The notes beneath the pieces were generated by a model. That model had not been told where the DNA came from and did no database searches. It saw only the letters and a list, made by a program, of their open reading frames with translations. A stretch of 64,000 nucleotides of DNA from Escherichia phage vB_EcoM_E9. Both the position numbers and the translations under genes were made by a program. This document shows, piece by piece, positions 3,224 to 64,000 of this stretch (position 1 is its first letter; every line of letters begins with the position of its first letter). The stretch lies in sequence record PP886229; one strand, written 5' to 3'.

Positions 3224-3670
3224 ATGGCTATGTATCAGCAATATTCCCCTAAAGACGTTGTGTGTAGCTGGAATGGTATTGCCATTGAAGGCTTTGCCCC
3301 AGACTCATTCTTACGTCTACAGAGAACATCACCACTTGTGACACCAGTTGTAGGTGCAGGTGGTCAAGTTGCTCTGACAAGAAATGCAGACAAGACAGGT
3401 ACTATTGAGATTGAGTTAATGCAGACTTCTCTCTCTAATCAGATGCTTTCTGCAATTCAAGCTAAACAAGACAATATGGAACTTGAAGAAGATATCTCTT
3501 CTAACTTCGTAATCTACGACCCATCAGGCTCTGTTCTGGCAACCGGTATTAATGCTTGGTTGCAGGAATTACCACAGATTGAACTTGGTCGTGACCAGAA
3601 CTCTAAAACTTGGATTTTTGGTTGTGAGAAGCTAGACTACACTTCTACAATTCCAGCGTCAAGTGTTTAA
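3224..3670 (+). CDS. putative tail tube protein
   Basis: 148 aa ORF between putative sheath and chaperone genes, followed by a strong rho-independent terminator. Confidence 0.5.
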   Translation: MAMYQQYSPKDVVCSWNGIAIEGFAPDSFLRLQRTSPLVTPVVGAGGQVALTRNADKTGTIEIELMQTSLSNQMLSAIQAKQDNMELEEDISSNFVIYDPSGSVLATGINAWLQELPQIELGRDQNSKTWIFGCEKLDYTSTIPASSV

Positions 3671-4384: not shown

Positions 4385-9768
<5,384 letters not shown>

Positions 9769-19447: not shown

Positions 19448-19777
19448 TTAATCTGCCAGCCTTAAATTAAAGTTAACACCAAATTTTTCACATACTTCCA
19501 ACATAAACTCAAGGGAGACATTACCAGTGAGATTGATTATGTTGGATACACGAGCCTGAGAGATACCACAAATTTTAGCAACTTGCTCTTGAGAAAGACC
19601 TCTGGATTTAATCTCTCTCTTAAAACGATGTGCAACGAAGTCTCTCATTTCGTCTACATCCATTGGACAAATATAACTCTCCATTTCAGCTTCTCTGTCA
19701 GCCTCCCAATCATCTTGTGGAGCATAAGGGTCAAAAACCTCATTCATCTTTCTTCTTCCGTTTGCGTGAAGTGTCAA
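19448..19777 (-). CDS. HTH (XRE/Cro-like) DNA-binding protein
   Basis: ..RGLSQEQVAKICGISQARVSNIIN.. helix-turn-helix signature. Confidence 0.45.
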   Translation of the reverse strand: MTLHANGRRKMNEVFDPYAPQDDWEADREAEMESYICPMDVDEMRDFVAHRFKREIKSRGLSQEQVAKICGISQARVSNIINLTGNVSLEFMLEVCEKFGVNFNLRLAD

Positions 19778-27303: not shown

Positions 27304-27530
27304 ACATTACTGCAAAAAATTATAAAAAGCAAGTTGACAATGTACTTGACAAGGTGTTAATCTTTGCGAAGTGGGTTTTTACTTAAAAGGTTACTTAACA
27401 GTTTAACTATACAGATACTTTAAAACTCTTAAAAGATTATTTAATAGCTTTTAAAAAGCTTTAAAGTATAACGTATAGAATACGTTAAGATAAAAGATTA
27501 AAACTTAATAGTTACTTAAAAGAGGCTTAC
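27304..27530. promoter_or_regulatory. divergent AT-rich promoter region
   Basis: 227 nt intergenic between divergently transcribed blocks; TTGACA-like hexamers (..caagttgacaatgtacttgacaagg..) and AT-rich tract. Confidence 0.35.
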
Positions 27531-52508: not shown

Positions 52509-52534
52509 AAAGGCTGCTTCGGCGGCCTTTTTTA
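52509..52534 (+). terminator. rho-independent terminator
   Basis: GGCTGC-ttcg-GCGGCC followed by TTTTTT. Confidence 0.6.
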
Positions 52535-52594
52535 TTTGTATTTTGTGCAGAGTGCTGTATAATTGTTGTCACGATAAACTAAACAGGAGAACCA

Positions 52595-54304: not shown

Positions 54305-54325
54305 GGCTCCTTCGGGAGCCTTTTT
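54305..54325 (+). terminator. rho-independent terminator
   Basis: GGCTCC-ttcg-GGAGCC followed by TTTTT. Confidence 0.6.
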
Positions 54326-54344
54326 CATTTCAGGAGATTGTTAA

Positions 54345-54692
54345 ATGACATTTAAAGAGTTCTGCCAAGCTACTTTCATAATTGTTTTCTTAGTTGGAGC
54401 AGGTGTCTGGGGAGGATACTCTTACAGAGACTACCAAGTTGCTGAGACTGAGCTAAATAATGAGAAACTAATAAGTGTTGCTAAAGATGCTTATCAGGAA
54501 GGTTTAGCCACACTCAGCACCAATTACAAAAATGATTTGAAAGATGTGCTTGCTAAGAATAAGCATACAAAAGAGGTACTAACATATGAAAAGACTAAGC
54601 CAGAGTTTTATAATGTTTGTGTTACTGATAATTATGTCAGGGTGTTCAACGAACAAAGCGAACAGTACATTCAAAAACTACCAAGTAAGTGA
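54345..54692 (+). CDS. i-spanin-like protein (Rz-like)
   Basis: 115 aa; N-terminal TM segment (FIIVFLVGAGVWGGY) then helical periplasmic region; 3' end overlaps a lipoprotein ORF in another frame. Confidence 0.4.
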   Translation: MTFKEFCQATFIIVFLVGAGVWGGYSYRDYQVAETELNNEKLISVAKDAYQEGLATLSTNYKNDLKDVLAKNKHTKEVLTYEKTKPEFYNVCVTDNYVRVFNEQSEQYIQKLPSK

Positions 54693-56143: not shown

Positions 56144-56929
56144 ATGGGTATTGTAAAAATCATCAATGGGGATATCTTCTCAGCATTTGATAAAGGTAAG
56201 TTTGATATTATTGGTCACGGTTGCAACTGTATGAACTTAATGGGTGCAGGTATCGCTGACAAGATTTCTAAACTTTACCCAAAAGCATATGAGACTGATA
56301 CAGAAGTTTATCTGTATGCAGGTGGTATAGGTCACAAACCCTGTGAAAATTTACTAGGTAATTTCTCTGTAGCACGTTTAAAACAAGGTCGTATAGCTAA
56401 TCTTTACACTCAGCTTAAGACTGGTAAAGATGCCCGATACAGTGCTTTAGAGTCATCTTTGAAACAGCTTAACAGATACTGTGAAGTCAATCAGTTGAAG
56501 AAAGTCGGGTTACCTATGATTGGTGCAGGTATCGGTGGGCTAGACCCTCAAGCCATCACAGTTATCATTAATCAGGTGATGAAGAGTGTAGATGTTTATC
56601 TGTATGTCTACGAAGGAGAGATGTACCACAAGTTACGCTCAGGTTGGAAGAACTACTGTGAGCCAGAATACTTTGCAGGTGTAGTAACGTTCACAGATGA
56701 TGCAGTTACCCTCTTCAGACGAAGAAAAGGTAAGATACATCAAAGTAACCCTCCGGTTGAGAAGATGTCTCTAAGTAACGCTCTAGTTACCCACATGTCG
56801 AAGGGCAATCACAGGATAGCCGTAACATTTGGCAGTGATGCAGATACATATATCTATGCAAGAACTGATGAGGATATCGAGGAAATTTTCTCATCATCAG
56901 AAGTTACCTTCTTAGACGCAAAGAGCTAA
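56144..56929 (+). CDS. macro-domain protein (ADP-ribose-binding/processing)
   Basis: ..INGDIFSAFDKGKFDIIGHGCNCMNLMGAGIADKI.. and ..KVGLPMIGAGIGGLD.. match the two glycine-rich macro-domain signatures (recollection). Confidence 0.5.
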   Translation: MGIVKIINGDIFSAFDKGKFDIIGHGCNCMNLMGAGIADKISKLYPKAYETDTEVYLYAGGIGHKPCENLLGNFSVARLKQGRIANLYTQLKTGKDARYSALESSLKQLNRYCEVNQLKKVGLPMIGAGIGGLDPQAITVIINQVMKSVDVYLYVYEGEMYHKLRSGWKNYCEPEYFAGVVTFTDDAVTLFRRRKGKIHQSNPPVEKMSLSNALVTHMSKGNHRIAVTFGSDADTYIYARTDEDIEEIFSSSEVTFLDAKS

Positions 56930-56995
56930 GAAACTCTGTAGAATATTCACAATAGGTTAAGCCTTTCTTATCTGGTAAATTTTTCAGGTAAGGAG

Positions 56996-57190
56996 GGCTT
57001 TTTCATTTCAGGATTGTGCAGGTAGAGTTCTGTAGAGAAATCTGTAGAGAGAATTTTGAACTCCAAAGAGAAAATTCATTTTCAAACTGTGCAGATAATC
57101 TCCAAAGAGCTTTTTCATTTTCAAAACGTGCAGACCCCGCTAAGGTCGGGCAAGAAAAATCATTTTCGAATTGTGCAGGTAGGTGGGTAC
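56996..57190. repeat. four direct iteron-like repeats (TTTTCATTTYCRAAAYTGTGCAG)
   Basis: Copies at about 56996, 57069, 57107 and 57155; ctccaaagag also duplicated; upstream of the first early promoter. Confidence 0.55.
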
Positions 57191-57356
57191 AGGTGGGAAT
57201 GTCGCCGTTTCTCACAAGGCTACCACATATGAAAAGAAAAGTCAACAGAAAAATTTGTAGCGGATTGAAAAATAATTCTTGATTGTAGTTCTGTTTTGTG
57301 GTAGTCGCGCGCCCGTTTCATTACAGTTTTTTGCAAAAATATTTTTAAAATTTTTC

Positions 57357-57445
57357 TTGACTCTCTGACTATGGTTATTTAATATTTGCATCAACGGGGG
57401 GCGATGACCTCCCAGCTAACTAACCTTAAACTAGGAGATTCAAAA
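57357..57445 (+). promoter_or_regulatory. early promoter plus conserved leader (type B variant)
   Basis: TTGACT-N17-TAATAT, leader hairpin GGGGGGCGATGACCTCCC, conserved RBS context ..ccttaaactaggagattcaaaaATG. Confidence 0.5.
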
Positions 57446-57826
57446 ATGGCTTATCGTGCACCTAAATTCATCAACAAAGACAACTTTCGCAACGTACTGG
57501 AGAAGGCACTTGATGAAAAATTTAACGGTAAAATAATTGTTGTTCATGCGTTCAATTTCAAGTATGATATCAACGGGAATAAAATCAACCATTACACGGC
57601 AACCATGTTAGATGGTACGCTATCAAGTGAAAAAGCCGTACTGAATGCACTGGCAGGACGCGGAAAAGTATTAGTAAGATGCGATAAGAGACGTTATCAG
57701 GGTGGCGCATATGGTTACGATGATGCTGTTTACCATCTTGAAAATATGGGCTATTCAGTGGAAAAAGCTGGAGCGTCTCAAATAATTGGCAGTGACGGCT
57801 ATGTGACAATTTTCAAAATTAACTGA
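57446..57826 (+). CDS. early small protein E1
   Basis: Start at ATG 57446 behind the conserved RBS; 126 aa. Confidence 0.5.
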   Translation: MAYRAPKFINKDNFRNVLEKALDEKFNGKIIVVHAFNFKYDINGNKINHYTATMLDGTLSSEKAVLNALAGRGKVLVRCDKRRYQGGAYGYDDAVYHLENMGYSVEKAGASQIIGSDGYVTIFKIN

Positions 57827-57991
57827 TAAAGTACTTTACAAGGGGCTTATAGTTCGATAAAGTAAGCCCCAGATAAAGAGCTTTACCACTCAATCCTAAA
57901 TTATAAAGTACTTTACAAGGGGCTTATAGTTCGATAAAGTAAGCCCCAGATAAAGAGCTTTACCACTCAATCCTAAATTGGAGATTCTAAA
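57827..57991 (+). promoter_or_regulatory. type A intercistronic element, tandem duplicate
   Basis: Two consecutive copies of aaagtactttacaaGGGGCTTAtagttcgataaagTAAGCCCCagataaagagctttaccactcaatcctaaatt, the second ending in RBS plus ATG. Confidence 0.55.
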
Positions 57992-58285
57992 ATGGCTATT
58001 ATCAAAAACGTTGTAATTACTGCAAAAACTCGCGATGACGCTCGCATCATGGCGAAAAAGTTAGGCGGGAAAGTTGTTGACAACGGAAAACAATCTGCTG
58101 TAAGATGGGGCGTGAAGACTGATAAACAGTTGAAGTTAAAAAATTCACCAATAAACCTTTTTACATGTGTAAACACTATCGGGAAGACAAATGTATACAC
58201 GAAAAAGGCATATATCAGACGCGTAGCCATGACATCACCTATTCGCACAATGAGAAGTCATGCAAAGCTGAAAATTAATCGTTAA
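57992..58285 (+). CDS. early small protein E2
   Basis: 97 aa, basic; conserved RBS. Confidence 0.5.
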   Translation: MAIIKNVVITAKTRDDARIMAKKLGGKVVDNGKQSAVRWGVKTDKQLKLKNSPINLFTCVNTIGKTNVYTKKAYIRRVAMTSPIRTMRSHAKLKINR

Positions 58286-62972: not shown

Positions 62973-63009
62973 GTCTTATCAAAGCTCTATACAATCCCTT
63001 TCCTTCCCT

Positions 63010-63065
63010 TTCCAGAATCTATCCCACTAATTCGACAGAATCTATCCCACTAATTCGACAGAATC
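63010..63065. repeat. tandem direct repeat cagaatctatcccactaattcga (2.5 copies)
   Basis: Two perfect 25 nt units plus a partial third. Confidence 0.6.
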
Positions 63066-63359: not shown

Positions 63360-64000
63360 TAGGGGCTGTTAAGTTACTTTGAAGTTACGTAAAAGAGGCT
63401 ACAAAGTTACGTAAATGCTAGCCCCCTTAACATTCTCTTAACAATTTCTTAACAATCCCTACATAGTTATGCTTGTTAGAGACTTGTTAGCCCCTTGTTA
63501 AATCTCTGTTAAGACCACGTAAAAGCCTTGTAAGAGTCTTTAGCATAGCCTTTAAAGCCTCTGTAAAGCCCTATAAAGAGGTGTCTACATAGTTGGGGTG
63601 TAATTACTAGGAAGAGACTTAAAAGAGCTTACAAAGAGCTATAGAGAACTTTTAAGAGGTATGTTTAGAGAATCACTAAGAAAGAGAGGGAACTATAGAC
63701 CAAGAGATAGTGACCATGTTAATAGCTTGTTAAAAAGATTAAACACTTGTTAGGAATTTGTTAATTATCTTAACAAAATAACTCTTAAAAATTAACTTGT
63801 TAGCTCTTATTAGTCATCTGTTAAGACTCTGTAAAACCTATGTATCAACTGTTAAGAAACTGTTACACCCTTGTTAGCTCTGTTAAGAATCTGTTAAGAC
63901 CTCTGAAGAGATGTTAAGAGGTTGTAAGAACTGTTAAGAGATTGTTAAGGATATTTTAAAATTTTGCAAAGGGGATGTTACAGGGATGTTAAGGGCTACC
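63360..64000. repeat. array of YTGTTARG motifs, helically phased at the 3' end
   Basis: At least 15 copies of (c/t)tgtta(a/g)g(a); from about 63849 to 63945 ten copies recur every 9-11 bp; no ORF of 60 aa or more; array runs to the window edge. Confidence 0.6.

Follow-up and report, generated by a model that had tools for sequence, protein, structure and literature searches.

Introduction

What do four short direct repeats do at the inner edge of the early-gene cluster of a Felix O1-like phage? The repeats were noticed in a stretch of 64,000 nucleotides (the window, by which we mean this whole stretch of DNA), where an initial annotation proposed that they might be an operator array for a regulator of early transcription or a set of origin-type iterons. 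The shared part of that proposal, direct repeats that bind a protein, has gained support from the conservation of the repeats and from their bipartite blocks, while neither of the two specific readings is established. Felix O1-like phages are used in Salmonella typing, biocontrol and therapy and include model phages (e.g. Bas63), and the array may bear on the timing of their transcription, the start of their replication or the entry of their DNA. The 2010 genome paper of Felix O1 stated explicitly that the temporal regulation of transcription was unknown (PMC3185647). No description of the array was found in the Felixounavirus and Felix O1 literature on terminal repeats, transcriptome, origin or iterons, nor is it described in the papers on Felix O1, wV8 and UAB_Phi87 or in comparative Felixounavirus papers, and judged by its sequence it looks like a previously undescribed docking site for a DNA-binding protein. 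Among the non-coding elements found at the early-cluster border the array is the best conserved; it is unique in the genome, and its four 25-bp cores make a small and precise target for experiments.

Results and Discussion

Four copies of one motif border the early-gene cluster

The window comes from a Felixounavirus genome, of which it makes up the right-hand 64 kb. Positions 56500-58000 are matched by 231 phage records, with vB_EcoM_D4 and I14.1 of E. coli as the best matches (96% identity); every other record is from a Felix O1-like myovirus. The motif TTTTTCATTTYNNNNNNNGTGCAGGT occurs in four copies, all on the + strand, starting at 56999, 57072, 57111 and 57156. Its 19-nt core, TCATTTTCRAAHYGTGCAG, is present without mismatch at 57076, 57115 and 57160, and the core of copy 1, at 57003, reads TCATTTCAGGATTGTGCAG and differs from it at 3 positions. 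When up to 3 mismatches were allowed, 7 matches to the core were found in the window compared to 0.28 expected, the other three being poor 3-mismatch matches elsewhere. A position-weight matrix for the repeat was built from relatives and used to scan the window and the D4 genome (89,439 bp, on either strand); it gave the four copies 32-49 bits and the next best site in the window or the complete D4 genome 14-15 bits, leaving the array copies as the sole strong matches in the 64-kb window and in the 89 kb of D4. No inverted repeat of the motif was found anywhere in the genome. The four copies of the initial annotation are thus real, but the spacing of roughly 40-50 bp that it gave for them is not, the start-to-start distances being 73, 39 and 45 bp.

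Units 2, 3 and 4 (about 35 nt each) are built alike from a 5' box, an A- or T-tract, TCATTTTC, a variable linker and GTGCAGGT (Table 1). The 5' box is CTCCAAAGRG in units 2 and 3, and in unit 4 it is GTCGGGCAAG here and CTCCAAAGGG in Moogle-type phages. The duplicated ctccaaagag motif that had been reported beside the repeats (CTCCAAAGAG at 57061 and 57100) is part of the repeat unit itself, and it is conserved in relatives. The duplicated aggtggg motif is also present, at 57181 and 57191, and is specific to this lineage. Of the two CTGTAGAG motifs that lie between copies 1 and 2, the second is the more strongly conserved in relatives and the first varies, neither stretch being invariant.

The array does lie, as had been described, between the macro-domain gene and a TTGACT-N17-TAATAT promoter. 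Homologues of the macro gene precede it in 29 IMG/VR loci, and the linkage holds in every lineage examined. The T-run of the macro-gene terminator forms the first five bases of copy 1; this terminator shows compensatory and G-U changes across relatives and is listed as t13 in the Felix O1 paper, where the repeats are not listed (PMC3185647). On the other side, the -35 of the first early promoter (from 57357) lies 177 bp past the end of copy 4 at 57180, and the first early gene begins at 57446. The early cluster that follows consists of about 14 small + strand genes reaching to 63.4 kb (about 6 kb), has its own sigma70 promoters, and is followed by the terminal repeat; many of its genes are preceded by near-identical promoter or stem-loop modules.

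Table 1. The repeat array and neighbouring features, in window positions
Feature	Position	Strand	Details
Single weak related site	52528-52552	+	TTTTTTATTTGTATTTTGTGCAGAG; directly after rIIB terminator (region 52512-52563)
Macro-domain gene, last of the operon ending before the array	56144-56929	+	261 aa; Pfam Macro E = 4e-7
Rho-independent terminator	56959-57005	+	17-pair stem and T-run; terminator scan
Repeat copy 1	56999-57023	+	TTTTTCATTTCAGGATTGTGCAGGT; mean column identity 0.89, 12 relatives
Two CTGTAGAG motifs in the long 48-bp spacer between copies 1 and 2	57030-57049	+	Starts 57030, 57042
Repeat unit 2	57061-57096	+	CTCCAAAGAG-AAAAT-TCATTTTCAAACTGTGCAGAT
Repeat unit 3	57100-57135	+	CTCCAAAGAG-CTTTT-TCATTTTCAAAACGTGCAGAC
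Repeat unit 4	57145-57180	+	GTCGGGCAAG-AAAAA-TCATTTTCGAATTGTGCAGGT
Lineage-specific G-rich segment after copy 4	57181-57197	+	AGGTGGG, two copies
A-rich block and GC-rich tract	57228-57310	+	A-rich block ends in -35-like TTGATT (57279)
First early promoter with A/T-rich upstream element	57327-57385	+	TTGACT-N17-TAATAT; core 57357-57385
Direct terminal repeat	63421-64000	.	Exact 581-bp duplication in D4

The array is conserved in related phages as bipartite sites

Comparison with related phages, which the initial annotation had proposed, found the array in every genus examined. It is present in Felix O1, wV8, UAB_Phi87 and other Felixounaviruses, in Suspvirus (SUSP1, SUSP2) and in Mooglevirus, and also in the Kolesnikviruses of Erwinia (phiEa104, Roscha1) and in a divergent lineage known from wastewater metagenomes (L064). 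Coverage of the intergenic region reaches 80% or more in 235 of 292 phage records. When IMG/VR was scanned for two copies of the pattern, the array turned up solely in Ounavirinae-like contigs of 84-94 kb, and the remaining matches were coding repeats. In all lineages that carry the array its position after the macro-gene terminator, the order of its copies and their strand are the same, and the order of terminator, array, about 180-190 bp and first early promoter is kept as far as the Erwinia phages, as is the first early promoter itself. The spacing of the copies is fixed within a lineage and differs between lineages (73-77/39-41/45, 37/37/39 and 36/148/38 bp).

In an alignment of 12 sequences the cores were 0.86-0.90 identical, compared to 0.47-0.68 for the spacers. 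Each core consists of two invariant blocks, TTTTTCATTT and GTGCAG(GT), with a freely variable 7-nt linker between them, and this is the pattern expected of a bipartite protein-recognition site. The 3' block is GTGCAGGT in every copy of the phages of E. coli, Salmonella, Citrobacter and Shigella; the Erwinia-phage and L064 lineages have GTGCATAG there in every copy except two. A concerted switch of this kind is easier to reconcile with a binder that co-evolves than with a conserved host factor, but gene conversion among the repeats could also be its source. In a sub-lineage of Felixounavirus (L047, positions 4415-4560, and L081, positions 8023-8170) there are three copies, one 39-bp unit being missing; the surviving unit joins the 5' flank of copy 2 to the core and 3' flank of copy 3, as would be expected from unequal recombination between copies.

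The sites are neither RNA structure nor coding sequence

The array sites are real, unique in the genome and conserved in the manner of a protein footprint, and they are neither coding sequence nor RNA structure. A conserved RNA structure was considered and rejected, as RNAalifold supported only the terminator at 56959-57000 (with a covariation term of -0.77 kcal/mol overall) and found no helix with compensatory changes over the repeat cores; the minus strand of the array folded no better than shuffled sequences, and an Rfam search of the array region gave no match.

Coding repeats were rejected as well, because the spacings of the copies are mostly not multiples of 3 across lineages and no frame is kept. 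Short ORFs have been annotated across the array (window positions 57003-57282) in the GenBank records of wV8 (EU877232, gene 13), D4 (PP886228, CDS0131-0133) and Moogle (KM236239, Moogle115), with strand and extent that differ between the records, and these are probably spurious, being artefacts of the repeats.

BLAST searches with the array gave no match in 5,426 E. coli genomes and none among the plasmids of PLSDB, and a host or plasmid source of the sequence was rejected. The genomes of 185,579 species, scanned for two copies of the pattern, yielded nothing beyond a coding repeat and a 35-bp tandem repeat that is unrelated. Chi sites are absent from the whole window.

A putative docking site for a regulator of transcription

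We infer from this pattern that the array is probably bound by a protein and has a conserved function, its four oriented sites being recognised by one sequence-specific DNA-binding protein. At each site the recognition blocks would be TTTTTCATTT and GTGCAGGT, about 1.2 helical turns apart, accompanied in units 2 and 3 by the CTCCAAAGRG 5' box. The binder would most probably be encoded by the phage and co-evolve with its sites, and by binding cooperatively it could build a nucleoprotein complex behind the terminator of the rIIB-to-macro operon and before the first promoters of the cluster. Such a complex may insulate or silence these first promoters, and in some genera the same protein may also repress the promoter of the upstream operon through a fifth site over its -35/spacer. 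Of the functions considered, control of transcription across the border of the early cluster seems the most likely, and we suggest it tentatively.

The sole hint that the binder acts on promoters is this fifth site, which in the window stands 4.4 kb upstream of the array (Table 1). It is followed by 5 nt and then by a perfect TATAAT -10 (52558-52563), and it overlaps the -35/spacer of a sigma70 promoter that heads the operon ending at the array. In the lineage of the window the fifth site scores 10-14 bits, which is within the range of chance. In Moogle-type phages the same syntenic place reads TTTTTTATTTGAAAAATGTGCAGGT-tagtg-TATAAT, with 22-26 bits and identical geometry to the TATAAT, and the site there overlaps the -35/spacer of a TTGAAA-N16-TATAAT promoter. 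An operator reading is favoured by a related single site which is strong only in the Moogle-type phages, and it is weakened by the chance-level score of that site here and by its absence in an Erwinia-type phage. Also at odds with transcription control, the four copies overlap no recognisable promoter, the -35 of the early promoter being well past the last of them. As about 10 other early promoters of the cluster carry no copy of the motif, the array cannot be a general operator of early promoters; the motif was likewise rejected as a general promoter element, since no further copies stand at other promoters.

The sole predicted regulator is an HTH_3 protein of 108 amino acids (19448-19774, minus strand), whose distribution does not support it as the binder: tblastn found no homologue of it in the Erwinia phages that carry the array.

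The 17-bp operators of P1 C1 are a known case of a phage repressor array with asymmetric sites. The array resembles C1-type operators and the sites of roadblock repressors in having asymmetric sites of one specificity, and it resembles repressor operators in the one related site over a promoter -35/spacer in the Moogle-type relatives. Unlike repressor operators, it has four clustered sites that are free of promoters, it has no regulon at other early promoters, and no cognate regulator was found for it.

Comparison with iteron-type replication origins

The other half of the initial proposal would make the array an origin of replication, in which an initiator binds the four repeats, bends or wraps the DNA and opens an A/T-rich block downstream, either at 57226-57275 or in the upstream element of the promoter (57316-57386); transcription from the early promoter would help, and the T7 gp4-like primase-helicase would be loaded there. 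We consider this somewhat unlikely, but it is a serious rival of the transcriptional reading. The λ origin combines four iterons, to which O binds, with an AT-rich region and a palindrome, and transcription activates it. The array has, like the origins of λ and of iteron plasmids, four direct repeats in one orientation (about 23 bp here and 20-25 bp in general) that are unique in the genome, and the succession of repeats, A-rich block, GC-rich tract and strong promoter parallels λ ori. Its asymmetric, bipartite site is compatible with binding by a two-domain monomer and resembles what is generally known of the sites of monomeric two-domain Rep proteins. Copies 1, 2 and 4 stand 73 and 84 bp apart, at distances of 7 and 8 helical turns, which would suit an origin, but only alternate sites are in phase, and the spacing as a whole is irregular and varies between lineages (36-45, 73-77 and 148 bp), so that regular helical phasing is not seen.

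Other features of the locus also depart from λ and iteron origins. The DnaA box TTWTNCACA has 5 matches in the 64 kb, none of them between 53.4 and 63.3 kb, so there are no DnaA boxes in the array region. The array is neither inside nor beside a recognisable initiator gene: it is flanked by the macro-domain protein and by small proteins that have no Pfam matches, and no initiator family of the Rep or O type was found among the 16 proteins scanned. It has no similarity to plasmid DNA. The replisome is T7-like, the primase-helicase being of the T7 gp4 type (Toprim and DnaB_C), and T7 starts replication from transcripts and not from an iteron-binding initiator.

The DNA next to the array is also not the most easily opened of the window. 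The A-rich block, which is possibly a weak promoter or an unwinding region, is conserved in Felixounavirus, Suspvirus and Mooglevirus and reaches 72-74% A+T at 57226-57275, but this is only moderately A/T-rich and begins at least 45 bp past copy 4, and in most relatives a C-rich tract stands between it and the array. Within the window, DNA stability is lowest at 27395-27520 and in the terminal repeat, and the promoter upstream element (57316-57386) ranks about fifth. The region 27395-27520 is an A/T-rich gap with repeated TTAAAAG, between the DNA polymerase gene on the minus strand and divergent replication genes on the + strand, and it is a better candidate for an unwinding element or origin than the DNA beside the array.

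The genome end and a possible barrier at the cluster border

The record of D4 contains an exact 581-bp duplication at its two ends that aligns to window positions 63421-64000, so the window stops exactly at the right physical end of the genome. Direct terminal repeats, called by PhageTerm, are reported in the D4 paper (PMC11737134). For UAB_Phi87, experimental mapping of the ends gave a repeat of 608 bp, and the SpeI end fragments measured 4322 and 2819 bp (PMC4837284); the SpeI sites flanking a D4-type repeat in UAB_Phi87 predict fragments of 4435 and 2746 bp, and the published ends agree with this within about 110 bp. The array thus stands 6.8-7.0 kb inside the right physical end, a distance of about 8% of the genome, and 6.2 kb from the terminal repeat, and this rules it out as a genome-end or packaging signal (pac/cos). 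Terminase sites (λ cosB R1-R3, SPP1 pacL/pacR) do resemble the array in having several short protein-binding repeats within about 200 bp, but those of λ and SPP1 adjoin the cleavage site whereas the physical end is 6.8 kb away here, and the terminal repeat has separate repeat families of its own (TGTTAAG, CTTAACA, TTGTTAG).

Its position raises a further explanation, in which the array would act as a polar barrier or make a DNA transaction pause at the edge of the early cluster (as a stop for entering DNA, if the right end enters first, or as a roadblock for replication forks or transcription), with the bound protein holding the DNA or blocking a translocating machine in one direction. This is unlikely in our judgement, although the array stands exactly at the inner edge of the cluster of about 14 genes and its copies have one orientation in all genomes. 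It forms the inner border of a terminal early-gene cluster in the window, in Roscha1 and in the joined L064 and L088 contigs (layouts that were reconstructed), and the order in an Erwinia phage and the L064 lineage is the same, with macro gene, array, an early cluster of about 6-7.5 kb and a terminal region rich in TTAACA/TGTTAAG. Against this, its position could just be that of a regulatory border.

The closest parallel for an entry stop is in T5, where two-step transfer of the genome is experimentally established and the stop site falls, at 7.9% of the genome, in a region of non-coding repeats which is conserved, more so than the neighbouring genes; this iss region of about 1.2 kb lies inside the 10-kb terminal repeat and contains inverted repeats, palindromes and paired DnaA boxes (Davison 2020, bioRxiv 10.1101/866236). 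The array shares with it that it is non-coding, repeat-rich, better conserved than neighbouring genes and placed about 8% from one end, at the inner border of a terminal cluster of early genes of the host-takeover type. Unlike the T5 site, it has four simple direct repeats and no inverted repeats or DnaA boxes, and it lies outside a terminal repeat of 581 bp and 6.2 kb from it. By this analogy the array could stop or pause DNA entry in a myovirus that delivers its genome in two steps as T5 does, which would require that the right end, with its 7 kb or so, enters first, and we regard this as a long shot. If it were true, the first step would bring in about 14 small early genes with host-type promoters, and a host or very early phage protein on the four sites would halt entry until takeover functions had been made.

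Host architectural proteins and decayed sequence

Decidedly unlikely, in our view, is that the array is an upstream architectural element which raises or sets the activity of the first early promoter through a host nucleoid protein (IHF-, Fis- or H-NS-like) or through intrinsic bending of its A-tracts. Each unit does contain an A- or T-tract (CTTTTT or GAAAAW before TCATTTTC), the array is upstream of a strong promoter that has an A/T-rich upstream element, and the hosts are all Enterobacterales, making a shared host factor possible. However, the invariant GTGCAG(GT) and the concerted switch to GTGCATAG do not resemble the degenerate sites that nucleoid proteins bind, the E. coli genomes searched lack the array, and 177 bp is a large distance to the -35. 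Inspection of the array by eye for the consensus sites of IHF, Fis, CRP, DnaA, MarA, NtrC, sigma-E and sigma-54 gave no convincing match.

That the array is a non-functional remnant (tandem duplications of a terminator tail and ribosome-binding-site module in slow decay) or a set of small coding genes is highly improbable: copy 1 does have 16 nt in common (CTTTTTCATTTCAGGA) with a terminator tail at 54318-54333, the units contain SD-like AAGGAGG/AAAGAG and the short ORFs mentioned above have been annotated across them, but conservation of the cores far exceeds that of the spacers and flanks across genera in which the macro proteins have only 64% (Moogle-type) or 36% (L064) identity, a pattern which largely refutes decay, and the lineage-specific spacings break the frame of ORFs that are themselves inconsistent.

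Other sequence features of the region

The tail of the other terminator (54311-54347, ggctccttcgggagccTTTTTCATTTCAGGAgattgttaaATG) enters the ribosome-binding site of the next gene; it is without the GTGCAG block and its matrix score is under the threshold.

In most relatives a C-rich homopyrimidine mirror repeat of the H-DNA type, CCCCTCTCCCCC-tcttact-CCCCCTCTCCCC, follows copy 4 directly (examples are L005, which is Felix O1, at 1477-1507, L028 at 3556-3586 and L034 at 3587-3600). The sole homopyrimidine run of at least 16 nt in the window (62995-63013) is found towards the opposite end of the early cluster. A GC-rich tract of alternating purines and pyrimidines (CGCGCGC) occupies 57296-57312, some 45-60 bp upstream of the -35 of the early promoter; in relatives (e.g. 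L034 3670-3682) it is CGTGTGCGC or TGCGTACACGCGT, the property being kept while the sequence is not.

Between the small early genes a module of about 57 bp, aaagtacTTTACAaggggcttatagttcgaTAAAGTaagccccagataaagagctttacca, recurs on the + strand (57835-57890, 57912-57967, 58291, 59363 and 60160) and combines a promoter-like -35/-10 with an overlapping GGGGCTTA/TAAGCCCC hairpin. The 57-bp direct repeats in the list of the Felix O1 paper (PMC3185647) are its counterpart, and similar promoter/stem-loop cassettes flank mobile ORFs in T4-type phages.

The terminal repeat is dense in short repeats of its own, with CTTAACA three times at its start, TTGTTAG five times and TGTTAAG eight times within the last 200 bp, and these are likely to be signals for packaging or end processing. 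In the L064 lineage (on the reverse strand, at about 5620-5770 of the joined L088 and L064) some 150 bp directly after the array are rich in TTAACA, the motif that characterises the terminal-repeat region, and a second region rich in TTAACA/TGTTAA is found 7.5-8.4 kb further on.
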